From IMG/VR virus record IMGVR_UViG_2885633469_000002, positions 64,001 through 128,000 of that record: a DNA stretch of 64,000 bases; one strand, 5' to 3'. Shown in pieces: positions 17,083 to 56,472 of the stretch; position 1 is the stretch's first letter; each line of letters begins with the position of its first letter. Source of the stretch: a virus (taxonomy: Duplodnaviria; Caudoviricetes). The notes below the pieces were generated by a model that had not been told where the DNA came from, ran no database searches, and saw nothing but the letters and a program-made list of their open reading frames with translations. A program made the translations under genes and the position numbers.

Positions 17083-19920
17083 TTATATATCATCCTCCTC
17101 AACTTGCACATTTTCTAATTCATAATATTCACCTTGCCAATATGTATTAGTTTTCTTATTTGTTACAACTGGTATATTTATTGAATGATTATTTTTCTTT
17201 AATAATCTATCAATGATTACATCCCCACACATATCCCATACAAATTGCTTATTTTGATTAGAGCCATAGCAAATATCTAATAATATATCACAAACCATAT
17301 CCTCATTGTTACATACTCCAAATATTTTTCTTTGATACTTATCAATTAATACTTGTCTATTATCTTCTGTGTTTTCTTCGTTTTCATCTGAGTTTTTTTG
17401 GGACATTTTATATAGCTTGGCTTCTTTTTTATATTCATTATAAATTTCATTAATTATCTCTTTATCTTTTTTTGAATACTTAGCATTCAATTTTAAAAAA
17501 TCATAATCAAAATTATTATTTTCTTGTCTAATGTTTGTTTCAATATCTTTAAATTTATCTTCTAATATCCAGCAAAGTCTGTTCATTAAACTTTTTTCTA
17601 TAGATACTGGCATCATTAAATTATAATATTTAATAAATTCTTCTTGATCTTCACTTTTATTTTCTTTTTTTATTAATTCATCCAATGTTAAACCAAATTT
17701 TATTAAACAGTTTGTATTATTATTTTCTATATATTTTTTGTATTTTCTCTTTAATTTTGAGTAGTTATATATAAAAAAATATGGTTTTTTATTACTTAAT
17801 AATTTTTGATTAAATTTCTTCCACTCTATAGTTTTTTCATCATCTTTTTCTTTTATAATTACACCATTTTTATCTACCTTGTATTCATAGTTTATCTTCA
17901 ACTCTTTATAATTGTACCAATGTGAAGGTACTTTTTTAGGTATGATTCCTTTTATTGAGTCAATTATCTCCTGCTGATATCCTTGCATACAAGCTATTCT
18001 ATATGACATTTCTTCATATTCTGGAGTATCTGCCTTAAATTTAACTAAAACATCATACATACCAGTACACTTGTTAGTTACATCACCAACATTATTACCA
18101 AATCCATTTTTATTTGCTTTTTTTAATAATGTTTTATTTATCTTTTTCTTTTCTGCTGATTTTTGTTCGCATATGATAGGTAATGTTTCTCTTGTGTTTG
18201 TTATTAATATTTCATTATCTGTAGTAATATTAGCGTCCCCGTCAAAATCCTCTCCATTCATAGTTTCAGCAGTACAATCCCAAGCATTAATTATTAAACA
18301 AGTTTTCATAAATCTATACCATTTTCTTGTATCTTCATTTTCAATTAAAGGCATTACCTTTATATTGTTATGTAATGTCATAGGAGCTCTATATGCTACA
18401 ATCTTATTTACATCTCTATCCAACCACGTTCTTGAATAAAATTCATTAGCTTTTAGTATCCCTGTAATCTTCATACCATACATATACTGACATAACGCAT
18501 ACAAATCCCCACTTACTATTTCATATGACCCTTGTACTTCTATTACTCCTTTTTTAGAATCATTTATTTTTTTTCTAATCATTCTATATACTTTTTGCTG
18601 TATAAAAGGGTCTTTTTTCATTCTTTTATCTATCATTAATGCTTTTAGATAATCATAATCTTCTTTTAAAAAATCTTCTTTCGTTAGTTTACAACCTTTC
18701 AAAAATAAAATCATTTTTAAATAATCTTCTGATAAAGCACCTTTTATTGAATCTACTGTTGGTTGTACTAAATCTTTGATCTCATTATCAGTTAGTTTGT
18801 ATGATTCTAAAAATTGATAATTCATATTTCTTGTTTTTTCTAAATATTCAGGTAGTATTTTAGCTACACAAAATTCAAAATCATTTTCCTTGCAACATTC
18901 AAGATAATGATCTATAGAATCATAAGCTTTCCAAAGTTTTAACATATTTGTTGTTAATATTATATCTACTTTTCTTATGTCTATCATATTGCCCCAAGCA
19001 TCTTCTACCATGTAGTTATGTGCTACATCCTCCGCAAACTCTAGAAACGGAAAAGTAAACAACATACCTTTACAAAAGGCATTACGAATATTAAAACCAC
19101 TAGGAGTATAAGTTGCTTCTTTTTCTTTTTTATCATTATATTTATAGCAACCCATATCAATCGCCCATTGCTTACTCAATTCTTCACTTATCATTCCACA
19201 ACCATCAGTAAATTGCCTATTAATTTTATAATTTTCTCTCTTGTTTAAGTCAAATCCTCCTTTTTCATTGTCAGATAATAACAACACATCCCTTTCTATT
19301 TCATGTTCCCCATCTTTTATAACTAACACTCCCTTTGGTTGTGTTACTGGTGTAGAACCACTAAATGCTAATGCCTTATATGCTTCAAATTTTGCAGGTA
19401 CATATTTTATTTTTTCATTTCTTCCATTATTTAACCTTTTATCTAATTCCTTATGTATATCCTCATCACAAAATAAGACTGTATCCTTTTTAACACCACC
19501 ACTTGTACCTATTGTCCTAATTCTATTAGTTTTATTTAATTTAATTCCTTTTTTAGAATTTGCCCTATTCCAATCTGCTATAGATTCAAAAACAATAGAA
19601 TTTAATTCTTTAACCAAAATTTTATCTTCTAATTCTTTATATTTTTGTTTAATTTTTTCTATGTTGGTTTTGGTTTTCCCCTTCTTTTTTAATTTTTTAA
19701 TCTCTAGTTTTAACCTATCTATTTCTTTTTCATCAACTTCTTGTCCAGTCATTTTTCTTATCATTCTTAAAGCTATACTATCATTAATAGATACTATCTC
19801 TTTATTTTTTTTAGCTGTTTCTACATCTAATTCTAAGTCCCAATTAAAATCTTTAAATCTGCTTGAAGCGTTTTTGTAAATTTGTCTTTGATTTATAATT
19901 GCTTTAGACATATCTTGCAT
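17083..19920 (-). CDS. yonO: YonO-type single-chain two-barrel RNA polymerase
   Basis: 945 aa with DGCGMI, IRNAFCKG, YRAPM and catalytic NGEDFDGD (DxDGD); SPbeta-like context. Confidence 0.85.
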   Translation of the reverse strand: MQDMSKAIINQRQIYKNASSRFKDFNWDLELDVETAKKNKEIVSINDSIALRMIRKMTGQEVDEKEIDRLKLEIKKLKKKGKTKTNIEKIKQKYKELEDKILVKELNSIVFESIADWNRANSKKGIKLNKTNRIRTIGTSGGVKKDTVLFCDEDIHKELDKRLNNGRNEKIKYVPAKFEAYKALAFSGSTPVTQPKGVLVIKDGEHEIERDVLLLSDNEKGGFDLNKRENYKINRQFTDGCGMISEELSKQWAIDMGCYKYNDKKEKEATYTPSGFNIRNAFCKGMLFTFPFLEFAEDVAHNYMVEDAWGNMIDIRKVDIILTTNMLKLWKAYDSIDHYLECCKENDFEFCVAKILPEYLEKTRNMNYQFLESYKLTDNEIKDLVQPTVDSIKGALSEDYLKMILFLKGCKLTKEDFLKEDYDYLKALMIDKRMKKDPFIQQKVYRMIRKKINDSKKGVIEVQGSYEIVSGDLYALCQYMYGMKITGILKANEFYSRTWLDRDVNKIVAYRAPMTLHNNIKVMPLIENEDTRKWYRFMKTCLIINAWDCTAETMNGEDFDGDANITTDNEILITNTRETLPIICEQKSAEKKKINKTLLKKANKNGFGNNVGDVTNKCTGMYDVLVKFKADTPEYEEMSYRIACMQGYQQEIIDSIKGIIPKKVPSHWYNYKELKINYEYKVDKNGVIIKEKDDEKTIEWKKFNQKLLSNKKPYFFIYNYSKLKRKYKKYIENNNTNCLIKFGLTLDELIKKENKSEDQEEFIKYYNLMMPVSIEKSLMNRLCWILEDKFKDIETNIRQENNNFDYDFLKLNAKYSKKDKEIINEIYNEYKKEAKLYKMSQKNSDENEENTEDNRQVLIDKYQRKIFGVCNNEDMVCDILLDICYGSNQNKQFVWDMCGDVIIDRLLKKNNHSINIPVVTNKKTNTYWQGEYYELENVQVEEDDI

Positions 19921-21610: not shown

Positions 21611-22369
21611 CTAACTTGCTAATCTTGAATTGGTAATTTCAACTGCTCTTTCATTAGCATCACATCCTATATAATTCCTTTTACCGTTTTTGGCACTTTC
21701 AATCATACTTCCACTACCACAGAAAAAATCACCGATTAAATCTTCTTCATTTGTGTATAAATCCCTTATTCTGTCCATTAATTTTAAAGGTTTCTGTGTT
21801 GCATAATCCAATCTTTCACTTGATGTTCTTCCTACCATTGGTATGTTCCAAATACATCTCATACCCACTAGCGTGTACCATCTTCCACATTTATCTTGAT
21901 ATTCTTCCACACCTTTAAACCTATAAGGTTTATAATCTCTGTTGTAGCTTATCTCTGTCATATAATTAAACTTTTGCTTTTTAGGATTTTTAGCATAAAT
22001 TATTATTTCATCATTTTTTTGTGATAATTTATGCTTACTACTTCCACCACTTGAATATTGCCATTGAACCACATTTATACAGTTTTTATATCCAAAGTAA
22101 ATATCACATATATCCCTAATCCAATGAGATATCCTATAATCCATTTGTAAAGCCAACGTTCCAGTTTCTTTTAAAAGCCTTTGTATTTCCTTTATTCTAG
22201 GTATATAAAAATTGTATACTTCATCTTTATTATAAGACAAGTCTTTATAATCTTTGAAGTTTCTGCCAGTAGCATATAAAATATCCCCATATATGAGGTC
22301 TATAGATTCATTAGATAACTGTTTCATGAAATCTAAATTATCCATACAAACTACTTTGTTTATTTCCAT
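21611..22369 (-). CDS. N6A/N4C DNA methyltransferase (beta-type motif order)
   Basis: SIDLIYGDILY (motif IV position), YATQKP, GDFFCGSGS SAM-binding motif. Confidence 0.85.
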   Translation of the reverse strand: MEINKVVCMDNLDFMKQLSNESIDLIYGDILYATGRNFKDYKDLSYNKDEVYNFYIPRIKEIQRLLKETGTLALQMDYRISHWIRDICDIYFGYKNCINVVQWQYSSGGSSKHKLSQKNDEIIIYAKNPKKQKFNYMTEISYNRDYKPYRFKGVEEYQDKCGRWYTLVGMRCIWNIPMVGRTSSERLDYATQKPLKLMDRIRDLYTNEEDLIGDFFCGSGSMIESAKNGKRNYIGCDANERAVEITNSRLAS

Positions 22370-22390
22370 ATAAAATCCCCCTTAATTAAT

Positions 22391-22911
22391 ATTCTGATAG
22401 GTAAGGCTTTGAAGTTATCTCCACCTTTTCCCCCAGTTAACACCGGACATGAGAGTTTCCAACTCATCCGGCGTCCCATCAATACTTACTTATTTACTAT
22501 ATTTCACAATTTCCAACCATTTTACGAAATCTATTTAACTTACTAATTTGGTCTTTATTAAGCTTAGCTATATTTTTATATTTTTCTATGGTTTCTGTTA
22601 CTGTAGCATGTATTAGTTTGTGTATAGTATTACTAACAACTATTAAGTTTTTATATTTATCTGTTCCACCTTTCCCCTTCGGGATTTTATGGTGTATCTC
22701 TATTTCTCCATGCTCTAGTACTTTGCCTGTTATTCCACATTTCCCATTTTGACTTATATATAGTGAAATTCTATTATCATTAAACTCTGTTGTAGCACCC
22801 TTAACAGGGTTTTCGGTAATATATTTTAGTAATTTCACATTATATTTATTTAAATTTTCATGTATTTTATTTCTGCCTTCCACAGTATAATTATTTACAC
22901 CCTTTGGAAAA
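22391..22911 (-). mobile_element. 3' remnant of a group II intron (IEP C-terminus with HNH domain, domains V-VI)
   Basis: Minus-strand DV ACGCCGGATGAGTTGGAAACTCTCATGTCCGGTGT, DVI ending CCTATCAGAAT; IEP tail NNYT.EGR..IH...CGITG..EIHHKIP..GGTD.YKNL...HKLIH; no RT domain. Confidence 0.85.
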
Positions 22912-23144
22912 GTGAACCTCACATGGCTGAAGCCACGTGCTTCCCTCATTACTTTAGGATTTCCTGCTTCCACGACCTCGTAACCTACTATCTCCACAGG
23001 CGTTAATTCCCGTAGTTCCTACGGTACTTTATTTATAGCTTTATATTAGCTAACTTTTTCTAATTAAGTATATTTATTCTAATTTTATATTAACATATGT
23101 CGCCACTAACTCATAACTGAAGTCACGAGTATGCGTGGCGATTC
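22912..23144 (-). mobile_element. Non-autonomous mini IS200/IS605 element (left end, omegaRNA scaffold, right end)
   Basis: Ends near-identical to the element at 49569-51402; TTGAA precedes the left end; ends in GGTTCAC; no tnpA or tnpB. Confidence 0.9.
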
Positions 23145-23495
23145 TTCAATTAAATCTATAATTATTTTTATTTCATCTATTGTATCTGTGTATGTCCACA
23201 ATACATCATCTAAACATTTATCTCCTACGAATATTCTCCACAGAGAACCTCCTAAATCGTTTTTATATTCTAGTAGACCTTTGCTATTAAATATTTCTTT
23301 TCTGCCATCTAACAGTCTTATATGTACAATTTCACCCAAATTTTGATTTAATATATCTGTTATATAATAATTTTTTAAATCCTCTTTTTTAGATTCTAAT
23401 ATTCTGTAATTGCATAGCTTAGAATCTCCTTTAAACTCCCCTATTATTTGTCCTTTAACTTTTAATAAATTTTTCATAATTATATCCCCTTTCAA
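23145..23495 (-). pseudogene. Hypothetical gene cut at its 3' end by the mini IS
   Basis: Its C-terminal ESPRILVTSVMS is IS left-end sequence, as in ORF 49311-49607. Confidence 0.6.
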
Positions 23496-23612
23496 ATTTT
23501 AAAGTTTTGTTTATTAATTGTTTTTAATTTACTTTTGAATGAAATATACCTTTTTTTATTTATCTTTGATTATTGCTATTAAATTTTTGCACTACCTATA
23601 AAATTTGAATAT

Positions 23613-27987: not shown

Positions 27988-29055
27988 ATGGAAAAAGAGA
28001 AAAATCTAATTATAGGTTGTGGAGGAGCAGGCAATAGACTGGCAAATACTTTAATGAACTTAGATAGGCGTTATACCACTATATTTTTAAATTCTAATAT
28101 GAGTGAAATGGAAAATTTAAAACACTTTGATAGCGAAAGACGTTGTTTTTATATTCCTAACGCTGATGGTTGTGGCAAAGACATGGATAAAATGGAAATG
28201 TTTTGTAAAGAAGAAGCTCCAAAATTTATGGTTATGATAAAAAAATTCACAACTCATAAGTATGTTACATTCTTAACTAGTGCAAATGGTGGAACAGGTG
28301 CTGAGGCAACTATTATGTATTCAGAGTTAATAAAAAAAGCTTGTCCAGAAAAATCTATAAATGTAATAGCAACTTATCCTTCTTTAACAGAAACAAGTAT
28401 TGATTTTGATAATGCTACAAGATTTTGGAATGAAATGATAAATCTTAAAAAGAAAGGCTATATTGATTCTATAAGATATATAGATAACAATAAAGGTGAT
28501 GAGGAAGAAATAAACATAAGAGCCATGAAGGAATTAAATGAAAGTTATGACATGGCAAATGGTAAACTAGACACTACTGATTCAGCAAAAGTACATTGTA
28601 CAAACGGATATAAAGTATATTTAAAATTAGATAAAAATTGTTCTGATTTGGAAGAAGCCATAGATAAAGCTATAAAAGAAAGTGTTTTCTATATGCCTGA
28701 TATCTTTGAATGTGATAAAATGATTGCAGACATCAACACACAAGATTTTGATTCACAATTAATTGAAGAAGAATTTGAATATTATGATTTTGGTAAATTT
28801 AACGAAAATACAAATGGAGAAACCAAAATACTTTTAGGCGGTTGCGAAATGCCAAGAGAAACTATTGAATTAGTACGTGAAGCATTAAAAGAAACTAAAA
28901 AAAGAAAAAGAAGAAGAAATATCCAAGAGGATTTAATTATAAGAACAGAAAATAACGAAGATAAGAAAGAAAATATAAAAACAAAGACAAAAACTAGATT
29001 GTCAGCAGATGATTTAAATAATATGTTTGCGGATGACAGTTTTTGGGATGATTAA
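27988..29055 (+). CDS. tubZ: TubZ tubulin/FtsZ-family GTPase
   Basis: IGCGGAGN, DGCGKD, ANGGTGA, IDNN and LDTTD tubulin-family loops; 355 aa. Confidence 0.9.
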   Translation: MEKEKNLIIGCGGAGNRLANTLMNLDRRYTTIFLNSNMSEMENLKHFDSERRCFYIPNADGCGKDMDKMEMFCKEEAPKFMVMIKKFTTHKYVTFLTSANGGTGAEATIMYSELIKKACPEKSINVIATYPSLTETSIDFDNATRFWNEMINLKKKGYIDSIRYIDNNKGDEEEINIRAMKELNESYDMANGKLDTTDSAKVHCTNGYKVYLKLDKNCSDLEEAIDKAIKESVFYMPDIFECDKMIADINTQDFDSQLIEEEFEYYDFGKFNENTNGETKILLGGCEMPRETIELVREALKETKKRKRRRNIQEDLIIRTENNEDKKENIKTKTKTRLSADDLNNMFADDSFWDD

Positions 29056-29169
29056 TAATACAATTAAATTAATATTTATACATTAAATAGGTTTTTAGTT
29101 AGCTTTAAAGGCAAGTAGGTGTTTAATTTCAGCACCTACTTAACCCTACCTGAAAAAATACCTAGTGAA

Positions 29170-29808
29170 TTATGATACATTATTTACTTTAAACATTACT
29201 CTCTGAATTTCATTACTTTTTAATTTGAAAAGTAAAAACTTAATGTCATTTTCGTTCATCAACTCTAAATTTTTAACACTTCTTGCAACTTCAATACTGT
29301 TTTTATTAAACTTGCCTGTAGAACATATAATACCTTTATCAGCATTAAACATTTGCATTGAACCTAATAATTTAAAACAAATATCTCTACCAATACAACT
29401 GTTTTTATCATAATATTTACATTCTACATAAGTAGTTTCAATTACTCCATTCACTTTTCTTTTTAAAATAATATCTCTGCCATAATCGTGAGTAAATTTA
29501 GTTAGTTTAACATCATAATAACCTTGATATTTAAATACTTCTGCCATCATTACTTCAAACTGTCTAGGTGTTAAATAGTTTAATTTACTTATTAACTCAT
29601 TTAAATTATATCCGTTATTATAGCTTATATTGAAGTTTCTAATTAATATGGGTAAATATTTAATTCCTTTATACATTTCCATACAAATATAACGAATCAT
29701 TTCAAAAAATCTTATTGTAAATTTAAAAAAGTTTTTTTCAAATTTGCTTAATTTTATAATATTTAATAAATTATAATTGCTTTTATAGAATTTTGTTCTT
29801 TTTTTCAT
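29170..29808 (-). CDS. Mrr-like restriction endonuclease domain protein
   Basis: LTPRQFE..AEVF..QGY...D.GRDII...VECK.Y...STGKF. Confidence 0.8.
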   Translation of the reverse strand: MKKRTKFYKSNYNLLNIIKLSKFEKNFFKFTIRFFEMIRYICMEMYKGIKYLPILIRNFNISYNNGYNLNELISKLNYLTPRQFEVMMAEVFKYQGYYDVKLTKFTHDYGRDIILKRKVNGVIETTYVECKYYDKNSCIGRDICFKLLGSMQMFNADKGIICSTGKFNKNSIEVARSVKNLELMNENDIKFLLFKLKSNEIQRVMFKVNNVS

Positions 29809-29876
29809 ATATACCACCTCAGTTATATATATCTATATTATAGACAAGAAATAATATTATATTCTATAAATAGTAG

Positions 29877-29906
29877 TGTCATTTTGGGGTGTTACTGCAT
29901 AGTATA
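29877..29906 (+). promoter_or_regulatory. Possible sporulation (sigmaE/sigmaK-like) promoter
   Basis: GTCATTTT-12-CATAGTATA; spacer slightly short for sigmaE. Confidence 0.3.
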
Positions 29907-29943
29907 TATTAATAGATAAATAAAGAAAGGATGAATATATATT

Positions 29944-30117
29944 TTGTATACTGTAGTAATTATAGGAACAGGCTTCATTGTAGGCATAATTAGATGTTAT
30001 ATATATAAGAAAAATAAAAATTCTAATAAGATTCAATATTATAATTATAGTAAGTATGCAGTTAAATATAAAAGATTAAATAATAATATAAACCAACAAT
30101 CAAAAAATATATTTTGA
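29944..30117 (+). CDS. Small membrane protein (57 aa)
   Basis: Read by hand: AAGGATG RBS, TTG start, MYTVVIIGTGFIVGIIRCYIYKK. Confidence 0.55.
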   Translation: MYTVVIIGTGFIVGIIRCYIYKKNKNSNKIQYYNYSKYAVKYKRLNNNINQQSKNIF

Positions 30118-30130
30118 TTAGATAATGTAG

Positions 30131-31657
30131 GTGAAATTTATGGATTTTATAAATAAAAATATTAATAAACAAAGTAGTAAAATTAAGCAAGAAAAATCAA
30201 AAGAAGATGAAATAAAAATAAATCAATTAATTTATAATTGGAAAAATACTTTTGGAAATTTAGAAAAATGGAATAAAGAATATAATGGATATACACTTTC
30301 TAATATTAAAGTAGAAACATATGGTTTTAGCTCTAGAGTATATGCTCCTTGGGGAATGAATCTTTTTGCACTTAGCAATTATACAGATATTATTGAAACA
30401 GGGTGTAAATGCGAATTTTTATATGAAATTCCTCAACATAGACAATTTGCTTTAGCTAAATTCATATATCCTGAACAAATAAAAATTAATAGTTGGGATT
30501 TTACTCCTGTTAAAGTTAAACCATATGAGTTTTGCCCAGGTTATGATATAACAGGGAAACCAATAGTTTTTAATCTAAATAACTCCCCACATATTTTAGT
30601 GGCTGGACAACAAAGAAGAGGGAAAAATGCTTCTGTAGATAACGCAATAGTTTCATGGATATATTCTTGTACTCATAGAGAAATAATGTTTTACATGTTT
30701 CAATGTGCTAAAAATGACCTTGTAAAATATAAAGAATGTAGTCAAGTTTATTGCTATGCAAGTACTTTAGGTGAAATTTTAATTGCCCTAAAACATTTAG
30801 AAAAGGAATTATTCAGAAGAACAAAGCTATTTGAATCAATGGTAAAAAAAGCTGATGGTAATGACAATATTTTTCATTATAATAAACTACATCCTTATAA
30901 TAAATTACCTTATATTATAGTTATTATAGATGAATTTATAGAACTCATGCCTGATAATTCAACTGATGATAAAGATATAAAAATAATTAAAAATGAAATA
31001 TTAAAAAGGCTACAAATGATAGGTCAATGGGGAGGTAGTTTAGGTATTAACTATTGCCCATTACATCAAAAACCTTCTGCTAAACTTATGCCACCTTTTA
31101 TTAAAAATCAATCTAGTATTAGAATATGCTTTGGATTTGAAGACTTAGTATGTTGTGCAATTGTTTTAGGGGATGAGTTAGCAAAACATGCTTATAAACT
31201 TCCGCCTAGAAAGGCATATTTCTCAAATAATGAACAAAATGGTTACCTATACACTCCTAATTTAAAAGGTCGCATAAGAATGTTTATAAAAGATTCCATT
31301 AAACCAAATCATAGAAATTTATTCAGTGATTTAGAAAAATTAAAATCTTCTAATAAGAAATTACAGATAAATAAAACTTCATTAAGTAAAAATATTCAAA
31401 ATAAAGAAGATTACTTACATAAAGATAAGGGAGTAGCACCAATTCCTAAAAATATAAATAAAAACTACACTAAAGAACTTAACTTTGATAAAGTAGACCC
31501 TTTCAAAAGTACATTCGATAATAAAAAATTAATTAATAATATTAAAAATAACATTCCTAATTTTGTTCCATATAATGCCAAAACAAATCCCGAAATAATA
31601 ATAGATAAAACTAAATTTGACCCATCCAAAACTAAAAAACCCATTAAAAATAAATAA
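30131..31657 (+). CDS. FtsK/SpoIIIE-family ATPase
   Basis: PHILVAGQQRRGKN (Walker A variant), E..RR, IIVIIDEF, LGI..LHQKP, IRICF. Confidence 0.8.
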   Translation: MKFMDFINKNINKQSSKIKQEKSKEDEIKINQLIYNWKNTFGNLEKWNKEYNGYTLSNIKVETYGFSSRVYAPWGMNLFALSNYTDIIETGCKCEFLYEIPQHRQFALAKFIYPEQIKINSWDFTPVKVKPYEFCPGYDITGKPIVFNLNNSPHILVAGQQRRGKNASVDNAIVSWIYSCTHREIMFYMFQCAKNDLVKYKECSQVYCYASTLGEILIALKHLEKELFRRTKLFESMVKKADGNDNIFHYNKLHPYNKLPYIIVIIDEFIELMPDNSTDDKDIKIIKNEILKRLQMIGQWGGSLGINYCPLHQKPSAKLMPPFIKNQSSIRICFGFEDLVCCAIVLGDELAKHAYKLPPRKAYFSNNEQNGYLYTPNLKGRIRMFIKDSIKPNHRNLFSDLEKLKSSNKKLQINKTSLSKNIQNKEDYLHKDKGVAPIPKNINKNYTKELNFDKVDPFKSTFDNKKLINNIKNNIPNFVPYNAKTNPEIIIDKTKFDPSKTKKPIKNK

Positions 31658-40527: not shown

Positions 40528-40893
40528 TAGTTGGTAAATAAAAAATCAAAGGAGTTGTTTTAAATGAATAATAATATAGAAGGTTATCACAAGGATTGGA
40601 ACAAAATTCAAGAGGTTAAAAGCAATTTATTCAAAGGTATAAAAATAGATAGTTTAATAAATCTAAGAGATACAGCAGAATCAGAAGTAACAAAGAACAA
40701 AATTCAAAATATAATACATGATATAGGCAACATGATGAATGGTATTAGTGATAGTTTAGACGATTTACAATCATGTGCGGAAAGCCCACTCCTTCAGGTG
40801 TGGGATGGATAGCACACAATAATATAAAAAACATTTTTAATAATTGTGTATAAATATATTGACTACATACACAATAAGTTATATAATATACTT

Positions 40894-41295
40894 ATGGAAA
40901 ATAATTATAGAAGTACTAAAACAACAGTAAGTTTAATTAATTATCATTTTGTGTTTTGTCCAAGATATAGAAGGAAAATATTTAATATTCCTAATGTAGA
41001 AGATAGGTTTAAACATATAGTCAAATATATATGTAAGGAGTTGAATATTGAAATAATTGCTATTGAATGTGATAAAGACCATACACATATGTTTCTAAAT
41101 TGTCTTCCAACATTAAGCCCCTCAGATATAATGCAAAAAATAAAAGGTGTAACAAGTAGGATATTAAGAGATGAATTTAAGGAATTATCAAAGATGCCTA
41201 GTTTATGGACTAGAAGCTATTTTGTTTCAACTGCTGGAAATGTGTGTAGTGAAACTATTAAAAGATATGTAGAAAATCAAAAAACAAGATATTAG
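40894..41295 (+). CDS. tnpA: Y1 HUH transposase
   Basis: YHFVFCPRYRR, DHTH (HUH), LWTRSYFVST, RYVENQ. Confidence 0.95.
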   Translation: MENNYRSTKTTVSLINYHFVFCPRYRRKIFNIPNVEDRFKHIVKYICKELNIEIIAIECDKDHTHMFLNCLPTLSPSDIMQKIKGVTSRILRDEFKELSKMPSLWTRSYFVSTAGNVCSETIKRYVENQKTRY

Positions 41296-41313
41296 AAAGT
41301 GAGGTGAATATTC

Positions 41314-42831
41314 ATGAGTAAAACTCCTAAACAAAGATATGTTTTAAATTTAAAGTTAAAAACTCAATTATTTCAAGAAGATATATTAGATAAGCGTTTT
41401 GATATAGGAAGAAAAATATATAATGCTGTTTTAGGTCAAGCTTTAAAGAGATATAGAGAAATGATTAAAACTAAAAGATGGAGAGAAAATCAAAATAATA
41501 TATTAAATGTATACAAAGTTCACAAAGATGGTAAAGAAAGAAATAAACTTTACAAACCATATTTTAATATTAAAAACGATATGTTGAAAGAATTTAGATT
41601 AAATGAATATTCACTTCACGCAGATGTTAAACCAATACAAAGACATTTTAAAAAGAATATAGATAGTTTCAGTGCCCAAAAGATAGCAAGTAGAGTTTGG
41701 ATTTCCTTGAATGATAATTTATTTGGAAAAGGCGAAGAAGTACATTTTAAAGGTATAAACAAACCATTGAATTCCTTGGAAGGTAAATCTAATGGTACTG
41801 GTATTAGATATAATATAGAAACTAATATGTTCTCATGGAATGGGTTAGAAATACCAGTTAAATTAGATATTAATAATAAATATGAAACAGATGCTTTAAG
41901 AGATAAAATTTGTTTTTGTAGAATTAAAAGAAAATTTGTTCGTGGAAAATACAAATACATTTTACAATTAATATTAGAAGGAATTCCTCCTATTAAAATT
42001 AATAAGCAAGGTGAAGTTAAGAATGATATAGGTTTAGGCGTTTGTGGTATTGATATTGGCACTCAAACAGTTGCTTATATATCTGATTATGATTGTAAAT
42101 TATTAGAATTAGTACCTAGAGTTCAAAATATAGAAAATGAAAAAAGAAAAATATTAAGATATATGGATAGAAGTAAAAGAGCAACTAATCCTAATAATTT
42201 TAATGAAAATGGTACTATCAAACGTGGTATTAAATTGGAGTGGAATTATTCAAAGAGGTATATAAAAGCAAAGAATATCCTTAAAGATTTATATAGAAAA
42301 CAAGCAGATGTAAGAGAACAAGACCATAATATAATGATTAATGAAATACTAAGAAATTGTGATACTGTTTATGTAGAAGATATGAACTATAAGGGATTAC
42401 AAAAACGTAGCAAAATCACAGAAAAGAATGATAAGGGTAAGTTTAAAAGAAAGAAACGTTTTGGTAAATCATTAGCAAATAAAGCACCAAGTATGTTTTT
42501 AACTATGTTACAAAATAAATTAAAAGCTAAGGGTGGTTTATATAAAGAGGTAAATACTAGAGAAGTTAAAGCATCTCAATATAATCATTTAAATCAAGAA
42601 TATAATAAAAAGAAATTAAGTCAAAGATGGAATTATTTTAATTATAATGAAGAACAAATTAAAGTTCAGAGAGATATTTATAGTGCATATTTAATAAAAA
42701 ATGTAAATGATGATTTAAAAAGTATAAATAATGAATTATGTATAAAAGATTTTGATAAATTTCTAAAAATGCATAACAAAGAAATATTAAGACTACAAGG
42801 ATTAAGTAATTTAAGTAGTATGGGAATATAA
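41314..42831 (+). CDS. tnpB: Long TnpB RNA-guided nuclease (505 aa, no zinc finger)
   Basis: RuvC motifs GIDIG, VYVEDM and QRD all retain their acidic residues. Confidence 0.9.
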   Translation: MSKTPKQRYVLNLKLKTQLFQEDILDKRFDIGRKIYNAVLGQALKRYREMIKTKRWRENQNNILNVYKVHKDGKERNKLYKPYFNIKNDMLKEFRLNEYSLHADVKPIQRHFKKNIDSFSAQKIASRVWISLNDNLFGKGEEVHFKGINKPLNSLEGKSNGTGIRYNIETNMFSWNGLEIPVKLDINNKYETDALRDKICFCRIKRKFVRGKYKYILQLILEGIPPIKINKQGEVKNDIGLGVCGIDIGTQTVAYISDYDCKLLELVPRVQNIENEKRKILRYMDRSKRATNPNNFNENGTIKRGIKLEWNYSKRYIKAKNILKDLYRKQADVREQDHNIMINEILRNCDTVYVEDMNYKGLQKRSKITEKNDKGKFKRKKRFGKSLANKAPSMFLTMLQNKLKAKGGLYKEVNTREVKASQYNHLNQEYNKKKLSQRWNYFNYNEEQIKVQRDIYSAYLIKNVNDDLKSINNELCIKDFDKFLKMHNKEILRLQGLSNLSSMGI

Positions 42832-43203
42832 AAAACAATAAACGTCTTAAAACGGGCGTTATACTATCGTTAATATGGTCATGGGACTGTTTGATAGTGA
42901 AAGTCTTAGGGAAAATAATTAGTGATATTATACTTTCGAGGTAATATAGAAGTTATTTAGTACCTAAGAACCCCATGCCTTTAGGCTTGGGAGTTTCAGA
43001 GGAAGATTTGCACGACTTGGAAATGAAGGAATATACAAAAGATTGGACTGCTCAAGAATGGGCAGAATATCATATGTCATGCAATAATATAGATTAAGAT
43101 ATAAATAATTATAGGGGTTATAGGGATTATTTTAAATCCTATACAACAGAAAAAGTCCTGTAACTCCTATAATAACAAATAATTTAAAAGGTGGTTATCG
43201 AAT

Positions 43204-49251: not shown

Positions 49252-49704
49252 TATTAAATAAAAATAATTTTAAAAAATAATAATGGTATACGAAAGGTAA
49301 GGGTGATAAAATGTCTGATGTAAAAGAACAATTAAAATGGGATATAGTATGTACTGGAAATGAAGTCGAAATTTCTGATATTCCTATCAAAATTAAAGAA
49401 TTGTATGGTGGTTTTGGTCAAGGTCAAAAAATATTAACAGTACCACAGATTGCAAAACTCCATTGTGACAATCCGAATGATAAAAAAGATATAACTAAAA
49501 AAGTAGCAAGAATAAATGAACTAATTAATAATAATATTATTCTAGATAGTGGAGATAAATATTTTGAAGAATCGCCACGCACTCTCGTGACTTCAGTCAT
49601 GAGTTAGTGGCGACATATGTTAATATAAACTTATAATAAATACACTATAAATACTTGATTTACTAATATACATATGTTATATTATATATAGAGGTGAATA
49701 ACAT

Positions 49705-50109
49705 ATGTCAGAAATGCATAAAGGCAGAGGATACGTATATTCTATAGAATACCATATAGTATGGTGTGTGAAATATAGACATAAAATATTAACTGATGAA
49801 ATAGAAAATAAATTGATAGAAATATTAAATAAAATAGCAAGTGATAATAATTTTAAAATATTAGAAATCAATGGAGATTTAGACCATATACATTTATTAA
49901 TAGAATGTAGTCCTCAGCATTATATTCCGAACCTTATGAGAGCATTAAAAGGTGTTAGTGCTAGATTATTAATGAAAGAATATGGCAATGAATTAAAAAA
50001 GAAACTATGGGGAGGACATTTGTGGAATCCTAGTTATTTCGTAGCTACTGTATCAGAAAATACAGAAGAACAAATAAAACAATATATTCAAAGTCAAAAA
50101 CAAAAATAG
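49705..50109 (+). CDS. tnpA: Y1 HUH transposase
   Basis: YHIVWCVKYR, DHIH, LWGGHLWNPSYFVAT, YIQSQ. Confidence 0.95.
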   Translation: MSEMHKGRGYVYSIEYHIVWCVKYRHKILTDEIENKLIEILNKIASDNNFKILEINGDLDHIHLLIECSPQHYIPNLMRALKGVSARLLMKEYGNELKKKLWGGHLWNPSYFVATVSENTEEQIKQYIQSQKQK

Positions 50110-50129
50110 AAAGGTAGGTGAATTTATCT

Positions 50130-51266
50130 ATGAATACAGTTATAAAAGGTTTCAAATATCGTATATATCCAACTGAAAAACAAGAAATACAATTAAATAA
50201 AACATTTGGATGTGTTAGATTCGTATATAATCAAATACTAGCAAAGAAAATAGATTTATATAAGGAAGATAAAGATAATAAACAACTAAAAAATAAAACA
50301 ACTTGTAATAATTATTGTAATAGAGAACTTAAAAAAGAATATCCTTGGCTTAAAGAAGTAGATAAATTCGCTTTAACTAATTCTATTTACAATTTAGATA
50401 ATGCTTATAAGAAATTTTTCACTGAGCATATTGGATTTCCTAAGTTTAAATCAAAGAAAAATCATTATTATTCTTATATTACTAATTTTACAAATAATAA
50501 TATAAAGGTAGATTTTAATAATAATAAAATTCAATTGCCTAAATTAAAATGGATAAAGGCTAAGTTACACAGGGAATTTAAAGGTAAAATATTATTTGCA
50601 ACAGTATCTAAAACTCCTAGTGGTAAATATTTTGTTAGTTTTAATGTGGAATGTGAACATCAAGAATTAAAACAAAATAATAATAAAATAGCTATGGATT
50701 TAGGTATTAAAGATTTATTAATTACATCAAATGGTACTAAAATAGATAATAAAAAATTAACATATAAATACGAACAAAAGTTAGCAAAACTACAAAGACA
50801 AATTGCTAAAAAGAAAATAGGTAGTCAAAATTGGAAAAAACAAAGAATAAAAATTGCTAGATTACATGAAAAAATAACTAATACTAGAAAAGATAATTTA
50901 CATAAGATTTCTCATAAAATGATTAAGGAAAACCAACTTATATTTAGTGAGAATCTTAATATTAAAGGTATGGTTAAAAATCATAATTTAGCTAAATCAA
51001 TACATGATTGTGGATGGTATGAATTAACAAGACAATTAACTTATAAATCAGAATGGAATGGACGTAAGTATCATAAAGTAGATAGATATTATCCTAGTAG
51101 TCAATTATGTAATGTATGTGGATATAAAAATGAAGATACTAAAAATCTAAATATAAGATTTTGGGAATGTCCACAATGCAATACAAAACATGATAGGGAT
51201 GAAAATGCAAGTATAAATATACTTAATCAAGGATTAAAAGAATTAGAATTAGAAAAAGTTAGTTAA
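50130..51266 (+). CDS. tnpB: TnpB RNA-guided nuclease
   Basis: KYRIYP HTH, AMDLG, SENL, CNVC/CPQC zinc finger, HDRDENA. Confidence 0.95.
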   Translation: MNTVIKGFKYRIYPTEKQEIQLNKTFGCVRFVYNQILAKKIDLYKEDKDNKQLKNKTTCNNYCNRELKKEYPWLKEVDKFALTNSIYNLDNAYKKFFTEHIGFPKFKSKKNHYYSYITNFTNNNIKVDFNNNKIQLPKLKWIKAKLHREFKGKILFATVSKTPSGKYFVSFNVECEHQELKQNNNKIAMDLGIKDLLITSNGTKIDNKKLTYKYEQKLAKLQRQIAKKKIGSQNWKKQRIKIARLHEKITNTRKDNLHKISHKMIKENQLIFSENLNIKGMVKNHNLAKSIHDCGWYELTRQLTYKSEWNGRKYHKVDRYYPSSQLCNVCGYKNEDTKNLNIRFWECPQCNTKHDRDENASINILNQGLKELELEKVS

Positions 51267-52130
51267 TATAAAACTATATAAATAAAATAGGGTAGGGACT
51301 ATCCAAATTTACGCCTGTGGAGATAGTAGGTTACGAGGTCGTAGAAACAGGAAATCCTAAAGTAATGAGGGAAGCACGTGGCTTCAGCCATGTGAGGTTC
51401 ACTTTGGTATTGATATAATAGATTTAAAACAAGACGTTTCAAACGTGGTGTTTTCAAATCTAAAAAAAGCTAAAATTTATACACAATCACAAATAGGTAA
51501 TGCTAAAAATTTATATATTTTATCTGAACAAGGCTATTCTCTATTAATAAATTTAATGAAAGATACAAAATCTAAGATTATTTATAAAAAAGTAATTAGA
51601 GATTACTTCAGAATGAAAGAATTAATTCTAAATAAGGATGATACAGAACAATATATGCTTAGATTGTTAGGTAAAAAAGAAAGAAAGAAAACTACCGATA
51701 CAATAAAATATTTTATTGAAAAAGGTGATTTTCCTTGGCATAATCCAAAAGATGTAAAAAATAATGCTTATGCTAGAGAAACTAATTATGTATATAAATT
51801 ATTATTTGGAATGACAGCAAAAAAGATAGAAGATTTTTTAGGATTAAAATTAAAATCCTATGATACAGTTAGAAATTATTTATCAGTACAAGATATCGAT
51901 GATATAAGAGATATTGAAGGTAGAGTTGGATATATGCAACAAGATGGTAAAAGTTATCAAGAAATTCATAAAAGATTAAAAGAATTATATCCAATTCCTA
52001 GACGTCCTAAAATGGCAGATAAGAATATTTCAATTATAAGAAGATTGATGCTAGAACAATAGAGTTATTGGGTATAATTAAATTTATACCTAATAATATA
52101 AAACAATCTAATAATTAAGGAGGATATAAA

Positions 52131-53817: not shown

Positions 53818-54149
53818 AAGTTTTTACTTTATATACATAAAACAATTTAATATAAATACATATATTTGTGAAAAAACTGAAACTTATAATATTTTATGGT
53901 ATAATTGGAATATAATAATATTCATCAAATGAGGAGCTGATTTATATTGCAAAAAGTAATAGATATTATTACAAAAATGATTAAATCATCAAAAATAGTT
54001 GCTATAATAATTTTATTATTTACAAAACATGTGCGAAAAGCCCACTCCTTCAGGTGTGGGATGGATAGCACAAGATAATATAAAAAATAATTTAAATAAA
54101 AATGTATAAAGGTATTGACTACATACACAAATAATAATATAATAAAAAT

Positions 54150-54551
54150 ATGGAAAATAATTATAGAAAAACAAAAACAACAGTAAGTTTAATTAATTAT
54201 CATTTTGTATTTTGTCCTAGATATAGAAGAAAAATATTTAATATTCCTAATGTAGAAGAAAGATTTAAGCATATAGTCAAATATGTATGTAAGGAGTTGG
54301 ATATTGAAATAATAGCCATTGAGTGTGATAAAGACCATACGTATATGTTTTTAAATTGTTTACCTACATTAAGTCCTTCAGATATTATGCAAAAGATAAA
54401 AGGTGTGACAAGTAGAGTTTTAAGAGATGAATTTCAAGAATTATCAAAAATGCCTAGTTTGTGGACTAGAAGTTATTTTGTTTCAACTGCTGGAAATGTA
54501 TGTAGTGAAACAATAAAGAAATATGTAGAAAATCAAAAAAAGAGATATTAG
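54150..54551 (+). CDS. tnpA: Y1 transposase with HUH changed to H-T-Y
   Basis: DHTY versus DHTH in copy 1. Confidence 0.9.
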   Translation: MENNYRKTKTTVSLINYHFVFCPRYRRKIFNIPNVEERFKHIVKYVCKELDIEIIAIECDKDHTYMFLNCLPTLSPSDIMQKIKGVTSRVLRDEFQELSKMPSLWTRSYFVSTAGNVCSETIKKYVENQKKRY

Positions 54552-54569
54552 AAAGTGAGGTGAATATTC

Positions 54570-56087
54570 ATGAGTAAAACTCCTAAACAAAGATATGTTT
54601 TAAATTTAAAGTTAAAAACTCAATTATTTCAAGAAGATATATTAGATAAGCGTTTTGATATAGGAAGAAAAATATATAATGCTGTTTTAGGTCAAGCTTT
54701 AAAGAGATATAGAGAAATGATTAAAACTAAAAGATGGAGAGAAAATCAAAATAATATATTAAATGTATACAAAGTTCACAAAGATGGTAAAGAAAGAAAT
54801 AAACTTTACAAACCATATTTTAATATTAAAAACGATATGTTGAAAGAATTTAGATTAAATGAATATTCACTTCATACAGATGTTAAACCAATACAAAGAC
54901 ATTTTAAAAAGAATATAGATAGTTTCAGTGCCCAAAAGATAGCAAGTAGAGTTTGGATTTCCTTGAATGATAATTTATTTGGAAAAGGCGAAGAAGTACA
55001 TTTTAAAGGTATAAACAAACCATTGAATTCCTTGGAAGGTAAATCTAATGGTACTGGTATTAGATATAATATAGAAACTAATATGTTCTCATGGAATGGG
55101 TTAGAAATACCAGTTAAATTAGATATTAATAATAAATATGAAACAGATGCTTTAAGAGATAAAATTTGTTTTTGTAGAATTAAAAGAAAATTTGTTCGTG
55201 GAAAATACAAATACATTTTACAATTAATATTAGAAGGTATTCCACCTATTAAAATTAATAAGCAAGGTGAAGTTAAGAATGATATAGGTTTAGGCGTTTG
55301 TGGTATTGATATTGGCACTCAAACAGTTGCTTATATATCTGATTATGATTGTAAATTATTAGAATTAGTACCTAGAGTTCAAAATATAGAAAATGAAAAA
55401 AGAAAAATATTAAGATATATGGATAGAAGTAAAAGAGCAACTAATCCTAATAATTTTAATGAAAATGGTACTATCAAACGTGGTATTAAATTGGAGTGGA
55501 ATTATTCAAAGAGGTATATAAAAGCAAAGAATATCCTTAAAGATTTATATAGAAAACAAGCAGATGTAAGAGAACAAGACCATAATATAATGATTAATGA
55601 AATACTAAGAAATTGTGATACTGTTTATGTAGAAGATATGAACTATAAGGGATTACAAAAACGTAGCAAAATCACAGAAAAGAATGATAAGGGTAAATTT
55701 AAAAGGAAGAAAAGATTTGGTAAATCATTAGCAAATAAAGCACCAAGTATGTTTTTAACTATATTGAAAAATAAATTAAAAGCTAAAGGTGGATTGTATT
55801 ATGAGATAAATACTAGAGAAGTGAAAGCATCTCAATATAATCATTTAAATCAAGAATATAATAAAAAGAAATTAAGTCAAAGATGGAATTATTTTAAATA
55901 TAATGAAGAACAAATTAAAGTTCAAAGAGATTTATATTCTAGTTATTTAATTAAAAATGTAAATAATGATTTAAAAAGCATTAATAATGAATTATGTATA
56001 AAAGATTTTGATAGATTTTTAGAATTGCATAATAAAGAAATATTAAGACTACAAGGATTAAAGAATCTAAGTAGTATGGGTATATAA
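54570..56087 (+). CDS. tnpB: Long TnpB (505 aa)
   Basis: Near-identical to 41314-42831; RuvC acidic residues intact. Confidence 0.9.
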   Translation: MSKTPKQRYVLNLKLKTQLFQEDILDKRFDIGRKIYNAVLGQALKRYREMIKTKRWRENQNNILNVYKVHKDGKERNKLYKPYFNIKNDMLKEFRLNEYSLHTDVKPIQRHFKKNIDSFSAQKIASRVWISLNDNLFGKGEEVHFKGINKPLNSLEGKSNGTGIRYNIETNMFSWNGLEIPVKLDINNKYETDALRDKICFCRIKRKFVRGKYKYILQLILEGIPPIKINKQGEVKNDIGLGVCGIDIGTQTVAYISDYDCKLLELVPRVQNIENEKRKILRYMDRSKRATNPNNFNENGTIKRGIKLEWNYSKRYIKAKNILKDLYRKQADVREQDHNIMINEILRNCDTVYVEDMNYKGLQKRSKITEKNDKGKFKRKKRFGKSLANKAPSMFLTILKNKLKAKGGLYYEINTREVKASQYNHLNQEYNKKKLSQRWNYFKYNEEQIKVQRDLYSSYLIKNVNNDLKSINNELCIKDFDRFLELHNKEILRLQGLKNLSSMGI

Positions 56088-56472
56088 GTTATTAAAACGC
56101 CTTGAAATGGGCGTTATACTATTGTTAATAAATTGGTAGCAATTTTTGATAGTGAAAGTTTTAGGGAAAATAATTAGTGATATTATACTTTCGAGATAAT
56201 ATAGAAATTATTTAGTACCTAAGAACCCCATGCCTTTAGGCTTGGGAGTTTCAGAGGAACCAGAATTAAGTTCATTGACAAATAAAAATATTGATACAGT
56301 ATCGTACTTTTAAGAGCGATAATTTAGGTTGTCGCTCTATTTATTAAAATTTGTATTAAAAAGATAGTTTTATAAAAATATTCCATTTATCTATTGACAT
56401 ATATAAAATAATTTCATAAACGAAAAATATGGAGAAAATGTGCTAAAGGTAATTGAATATTTTATTTAATGC

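Follow-up and report, generated by a model that had tools for sequence, protein, structure and literature searches.

A gene-less, PATE-like IS605 remnant in a clostridial phage, most likely left by a deletion joining a phage gene to a group II intron

The window analysed here, a stretch of 64,000 nucleotides (positions 64,001 to 128,000 of virus record IMGVR_UViG_2885633469_000002), is part of the 146-kb contig C26 (25% GC) in a genome totalling 3.28 Mb. Its genes include a terminase, an RdRP-like polymerase, a tubulin-family gene and antirepressors, which together mark it as a large phage or phage-plasmid. The nearest named relatives of the region are Clostridium botulinum plasmids of 197–215 kb (88–89% identity), and the host genus is represented by this one genome only in the collection searched. 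A search of the host for a neurotoxin light chain, run without a positive control, gave no match. The RdRP-like polymerase module (17083–19920, −) is swapped among sister phages: L031 and L034 match the window at 90%, and L032, L033, L035 and L036 carry dissimilar genes of 850–920 aa at that position. Elsewhere in the window, a tubulin/FtsZ-family gene, an Mrr-type endonuclease on the opposite strand and an FtsK-like gene are neighbours (27988–31657, +), and 40769–43004 and 54025–56259 form a near-identical pair of another element, composed of tnpA and a 505-aa gene without a Pfam match, at a spacing of 13,256 bases.

The locus of interest comprises a short insertion sequence (IS) with no genes of its own, its two flanks, and a full-length relative elsewhere in the window:

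21611..22369, minus strand: DNA methyltransferase gene (Pfam N6_N4_Mtase), downstream of the intron 3′ end; missing here in all six sister loci
22391..22476, minus strand: group II intron domains V/VI and 3′ end (Rfam RF00029, 42.8 bits), the 3′ end as in loci L002 and L003
22497..22910, minus strand: HNH-bearing (Pfam) C-terminal part of the intron-encoded protein (IEP) of a group II intron, 137–138 codons, open, without RT domain
22896..22911, minus strand: predicted guide, the first 16 nt of the right flank, IEP sequence, assigned by the known TnpB guide rule
22912..23144, minus strand: gene-less IS605 element (left end, tnpB tail, omegaRNA scaffold, right end), 233 bp, GAATCG to GGTTCAC
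22912..23024, minus strand: predicted scaffold of the omegaRNA, terminating with the right-end hairpin and TTCAC
23045..23065, minus strand: remnant of the tnpB 3′ end including the stop codon, aligned to 51247–51266
23067..23144, minus strand: left end of the gene-less element with subterminal hairpin; likeness to the full IS ends before the promoter-like site upstream of tnpA
23145..23149, minus strand: TTGAA target motif, native to the phage gene (empty site in L031–L035)
23145..23477, minus strand: hypothetical phage gene, 111 codons to the junction, without Pfam or PHROG family
49569..51402, plus strand: full-length IS605 copy from the family of the gene-less element, preceded by TTGAA within an antirepressor-like gene
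49705..50109, plus strand: tnpA (Y1 transposase; Pfam Y1_Tnp)
50130..51266, plus strand: tnpB, 378 aa (Pfam; RuvC residues D190, E274 and D357)

The original prediction described a protein-less form of the full IS that keeps its left end, omegaRNA scaffold and right end. These parts are all present in the 233-bp element (hereafter the mini-element), whose exact bounds are 23144–22912 on the minus strand. After roughly 80 nt of left end the sequence passes directly to the final ~20 nt of tnpB and everything beyond, so that those ~20 nt, with the stop codon, are the sole remainder of the two transposon genes. Alignment to the full IS gives 93% identity across 83 nt for the left arm and 89% across 138 nt for the right arm; 58 of the first 62 nt and 94 of the last 100 nt match. 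The aligned ends place both copies in one family. With only 90–94% identity and a different 5′ hairpin, however, the mini-element descends from a relative of the resident IS and not from that copy itself.

The two copies also differ in their surroundings. The flanks of the full IS, two halves of the antirepressor-like gene, rejoin in one frame, matching expectation for a single insertion, whereas those of the mini-element do not rejoin to a single empty site. On its left, the phage gene reads through into the left end, which replaces its last six codons (EGGAAR in sisters) and brings a stop at 23106. Comparison with sister phages, which the original prediction had proposed as a check, revealed element-free junctions of the form GATTTAATTGAA|GAAGGAGGGG in five of six loci (L031–L035), the sixth being more divergent there. 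The motif is thus native to a phage gene that ends in TTGAA and is unrelated to the right flank, as had been proposed. Past TTGAA the sisters go on with GAAGGAGGGG, and the window with intron sequence; beyond that point the five loci hold three small genes and neither intron nor methylase, and the sixth likewise lacks both, so the intron is found in 0 of 6. Four small sister genes used as queries against the window's own genome gave no match (0/4), and the methylase, used as a query for the pre-deletion locus, found no viral relative and only distant plasmid matches (~30% at best).

TTGAA directly precedes the left end in both window copies and in a lone left end at C26:138235, as well as in L037 (a tnpB-only copy in a sister phage), L040, L041, L045, L064, L065, L078 and L079. 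Two weaker left-end matches, L055 and L063, have no TTGAA before the left end. Right ends of the family terminate in TCAC, with TCAG seen once. The lone left end (G000:C26:138235–138296) is a 62-bp piece after TTGAA at a gene end, without a right end, and represents a second deletion scar; a new gene with a ribosome-binding site begins ~20 nt further on. A left-truncated family copy was also seen on a named plasmid, and the two cases together show that partial deletions of this family are common in these phage-plasmids.

The right flank is the remainder of a group II intron, 521 nt in length and corresponding to the last 20% of an intron whose intact relative measures 2,658 nt. That this flank is IEP sequence, in frame with TTGAA, was part of the original prediction and is corroborated by the Pfam HNH domain, the match to Rfam RF00029 and the reading register: TTGAA followed by the right flank translates as L-N-F-P-K-G-V-N-N-Y-T, in the register of P-L-N-F-P-I-G-V-N-S-Y (L002) and P-M-N-F-P-R-D-V-N-N-Y (L003). 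The closest intact introns, in G185 and G211, are 85% identical and ~2.65 kb long, so ~2.1 kb including the RT is gone from the window's intron. In the searches for intron relatives and IS605-family genomes, about two candidates per genome were scored and 20 and 21 genomes went unscored, which makes the tallies floors. The remaining IEP frame has neither stop nor frameshift; this suggests a recent loss and, with 80% of the intron missing, fits a single one. The right end contains an ATG from which the IEP tail can be read in frame (22949–22497, −), and this could yield a free-standing HNH protein of ~150 aa, an arrangement with a one-in-three chance by frame alone. Elsewhere in the genome, an intact, distantly related group II intron with a 615-codon open frame splits a chromosomal gene (G000:C18:34538–36385).

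The position of the right junction is informative. It coincides exactly with the family's TTCAC end, and the 5-mer ahead of it is one mismatch from TTGAA in both closest intact introns, as is true at 59 of 2,623 aligned positions (2.2%). Given how rarely such a TAM-like 5-mer would fall there by chance, the right junction is very likely a site chosen by TnpA. The parent intron itself was sought with the IEP fragment, which found none in viral contigs and only 29–43% relatives in genome and metagenome contigs, and with degenerate flank patterns, which gave 0 matches in the viral, metagenome and genome collections. A contig of run X2 carries a closer intron, with 29 differences over 383 nt, and ends 11 nt before the junction; runs X6 and X7 gave short chance pieces only.

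We consider it most likely, at a probability of roughly three in four, that the mini-element is a PATE-like gene-less IS605 remnant, with its left end in a phage gene and its right end in a group II intron, created by a deletion between two copies. Copies in the phage gene and in the intron would each have inserted after a TTGAA-type site, and a single deletion would then have joined them, removing the DNA between, including the intron RT. The most economical deletion would start near base 80 of the upstream copy and extend as far as the tnpB end of the copy inside the intron; along this route the mini-element and its mismatched flanks would arise in one step. The deletion scar suggested by the original prediction accords with flanks from two sites, with the survival of 521 of 2,658 nt and with the TAM-like junction (2.2%), from which we infer the two-copy deletion itself. 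Gene-less mini-elements of 171–209 bp, each after TTGAA, occur in the Clostridiaceae genomes G273, G126 and G290, that is, in at least 3 of the 28 other genomes with a match. Searches for a phage with the pre-deletion arrangement found none, and the 233-bp element is single copy in its own genome, with no second copy in 380 scored family genomes (two candidates each), plasmids or viral contigs. These negatives speak against this explanation, as do the lack of decay in the scaffold and a block in run X1 (below) that could have moved to another phage background.

Could the same arrangement have come from a single insertion? TnpA might have cleaved the right end and linked it to a TTGAA or ATGAA further downstream, in the intron, with loss of the DNA between; the mini-element may already have existed by then. 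This would need no second copy, and ATGAA, the commonest 5-mer at the site in intact introns (13/41), departs from the target motif in its first base only. Target choice by TnpA relies on base pairing to a short guide in the left end, in the account given in 10.1101/2023.03.14.532601, from which one-ended events might be derived. We regard this route as unlikely, since the full TTGAA stands in the left flanks observed for the family, a literature search for adjacent deletion by IS605 TnpA gave nothing on topic, and two steps (mini-element, then deletion) would be needed rather than one. Insertion of a 5′-truncated group II intron at the element's right end is very improbable: what adjoins the right end is sequence from mid-IEP, not an intron 5′ end, and the break comes after a TAM-like 5-mer (2.2%). 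Moreover, the DNA past the intron 3′ end mismatches the sister empty site, so that a deletion is required anyway.

Both junctions recur in run X1. There, a 1,291-nt contig is identical to 21824–23114, the mini-element–intron block, and bridges the right junction; a second contig bridges the left junction and covers 23085–23503, with 17 differences in 419 letters and 2 gaps. Other parts of the stretch were uncovered in this run, so it probably contains a related phage; it may, however, be linked to the source sample. A misassembly joining two repeat copies could be imagined, given that the element ends are repeated on the contig. We judge this extremely improbable, because the mini-element differs by 6–10% from the other copies and the X1 contigs span the right junction without a difference, and the left junction as well, although X1 is perhaps not independent of the source.

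The lack of decay in the scaffold raises the question of function. An alignment of 16 right-end regions yields 26 consensus pairs, 13 with two-sided changes, and the mini-element keeps all 26. In this alignment 99% of cells are paired, against 25–46% in slid controls, in a test where the structure was derived from the very alignment being scored. The mini-element scaffold folds as a single sequence with z = −3.39, and no Rfam family matched it. One family member (L057, G296:C446) carries a 26-nt insertion in a loop of the scaffold. The 5′ hairpin of the mini-element (23010–23024) shows a paired CC/GG swap relative to the other 15 aligned members. We considered this swap as a sign of selection on the mini-element and rejected it: the same hairpin is present in at least 8 of 390 other family genomes, beside other TnpB genes in most loci long enough to include one. 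Being shared with other clostridial TnpB lineages, the hairpin looks inherited or recombined rather than selected here. Its union with the scaffold of the resident family possibly makes a chimeric omegaRNA, and its plus strand scores as a terminator-like site.

The resident TnpB may be able to use such an RNA. It aligned to the TnpB of PDB 8h1j with an E value of 1.5e-87 over residues 6–369, with D190, E274 and D357 in place. The residues matching these three are the catalytic ones in the solved TnpB. An omegaRNA given in trans works for a clostridial IS607-family TnpB, according to 10.1101/2023.11.20.567912; with trans use published and both scaffold and TnpB intact, loading of the mini-element RNA by the resident TnpB is plausible. 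The source of this RNA is less evident. Promoter-like sites near the mini-element are at chance level (20 found versus 20.1 expected), and the promoter-like site that the full IS has upstream of tnpA is absent. Judged from the sequence, expression would probably depend on read-through from the co-oriented phage gene. TnpB is described as able to trim a longer transcript at its 5′ side (PMC10278001), and the read-through RNA may be trimmed and then loaded in this way.

What such an RNA would be directed against follows from the guide rule. TnpB guides come from the right flank, and TnpB cuts the joint left by excision, restoring the element, as set out in 10.1101/2023.03.14.532601. Excision of the mini-element by TnpA would leave a joint of TTGAA plus guide, which would be its natural target and lead to ordinary restorative homing; ordinary function would thus explain the arrangement. 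Any copy that inserts into an intron acquires an intron-matching guide by default, without selection. The match here reflects where the element landed and is not a selected defence.

The original prediction went further, proposing that TnpB acting in trans could cut intact copies of the intron, a form of RNA-guided memory, and named the presence of TTGAA in the intact intron as a test. We entered 47 intron loci, of which 41 were scored after leaving out 4 without cover of the site and 2 duplicates. The 5-mer at the junction site was TTGAA in 0 of 41, ATGAA in 13 and TTAAA in 1. The three closest loci combine TTAAA or ATGAA with 3–6 guide mismatches, the two closest having 3 and 6, including position 1. 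Among 125 homologous proteins the codons at the site read Leu-Asn in 5 and Met-Asn in 45; all 11 of the closest proteins checked have Met-Asn, which rules out TTGAA in them. As the parent intron is not among these relatives, TTGAA in the parent stands as inferred rather than refuted.

No target came to light in the window's own genome, where, among 13,092 TTGAA sites compared with the guide, the closest mismatches it at 5 of 16 positions. An intact copy of the window's intron is absent from the genome, and the only other intron there is 67% identical, with ATGAA and 7 guide mismatches. Target-pattern scans of the viral, metagenome and genome collections found no match. A 16-mer scan of 401 genomes with one mismatch allowed returned mostly noise, six inspected sites having no IEP; exact 16-mers numbered 2 among the 150 matches listed (93 further), neither in an intron. 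The introns found in viral contigs are only 43–56% identical to the closest IEP. On this evidence the claim of a TnpB memory or defence against the intron is not sustained. The guide would reach near-identical intron copies only, and the sole target sure to be reachable in this cell is the mini-element's own excision joint.

A functional role is best weighed against these results. The resident TnpB and the mini-element RNA might cut the intact parent intron; in a co-infecting sister with the intron at this locus, repair templated by the carrier would then transfer the deletion allele and eliminate the RT. In its stronger form, the scar would be a small RNA-guided drive, in which trans-loaded TnpB cuts the parent intron in co-infecting sisters or on arrival and repair spreads the intron-deleted allele. 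The intact scaffold and TnpB triad would allow this, as would the activity of trans-supplied omegaRNA with a clostridial IS607-family TnpB (10.1101/2023.11.20.567912), and non-restorative homing between phages or plasmids is among the mechanisms discussed in PMC13565253. The left-junction contig of run X1 also resembles a conversion tract: it agrees with the window at 10 listed variable places (23281–23331) and differs at 7 listed places from 23337. Homing with co-conversion leaves an identical block in a different background, on the description in PMC13565253, and the mini-element–intron block could have passed from one phage background to another, an outcome not expected from neutral decay but compatible with phage mosaicism. 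Ordinary mosaicism would leave the same block equally well, and one case cannot separate it from homing. Against a functional guide stand the absence of TTGAA from all 41 intact loci, the mismatches in the closest introns, the Met-Asn codons of the 11 closest proteins, the empty pattern scans, exact 16-mers that lie outside introns, sister loci and viral contigs with no close copy of the intron, and promoter-like sites at chance level. We therefore think a functional anti-intron guide improbable, and the drive slightly more so.

The features expected of a domesticated defence are likewise absent. Neither the 41 intact loci nor the scans offered a real target, with motif and guide match, in another mobile element. 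Nor is the guide kept across lineages and uncoupled from the ends, since both transposon ends are retained; guide and mini-element are absent from all six sister loci and the plasmid relative compared, and occur elsewhere only in run X1. In sum, the mini-element is of a known type and sits at a deletion junction, without the marks of a domesticated defence locus. If drive or memory did prove true, an orphan omegaRNA would direct TnpB at a second mobile element with no need for a CRISPR array, a simple step from transposon nuclease toward immunity, and a drive would mean one mobile element purging another from a phage population. The deletion between two copies, which we favour, would instead make the locus a clear example of IS605 copies deleting DNA in large clostridial phages, with leftover guide-RNA scaffolds that carry a guide foreign to their left flank.

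Several known systems bear on this reading. The target motif of ISDra2 is TTGAT, whereas TTGAA is the motif inferred for the resident family. The resident TnpB aligns to that of ISDra2 (PDB 8h1j, 8bf8) over residues 6–369 with the catalytic acidic residues kept. TnpB genes beside CRISPR arrays targeting other elements have been proposed in archaea, as outlined in 10.1101/2023.08.02.551345, and group II introns are known in phages (PMC12350094); searches of the open-access literature, mostly at the level of abstracts, showed no orphan omegaRNA aimed at a group II intron. IStrons, which combine a group I intron with IS605 or IS607, are likewise clostridial and set intron and omegaRNA side by side, and a PATE with IStron ends features in 10.1101/2023.11.20.567912. 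In an IStron, however, the group I intron lies inside the element ends; in the window the intron is group II, with domains V/VI beyond the right end, has lost its first 80% and is not expected to splice, and no functional coupling is indicated. Restorative and non-restorative homing by IS605 TnpB, as presented in PMC13565253, uses a guide against motif plus right flank, the element-free site, as the mini-element would; here, by contrast, the site from which the guide derives belonged to a different mobile element, and unrelated phage DNA has taken the place of the left homology arm. The closest parallel is with the PATEs of Geobacillus stearothermophilus, described by Meers et al. (10.1101/2023.03.14.532601) as gene-less IS200/IS605 elements that encode omegaRNAs and need TnpB in trans. 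The mini-element shares with them the ends with subterminal hairpins of an autonomous family, TTGAA directly before the left end, an omegaRNA scaffold with a right-flank guide, and the lack of tnpA and tnpB, which another copy would have to supply. It differs in being single copy and in flanks that do not rejoin to one empty site, and for the latter reason we class it as a PATE-like remnant at a deletion junction rather than as a mobile PATE.
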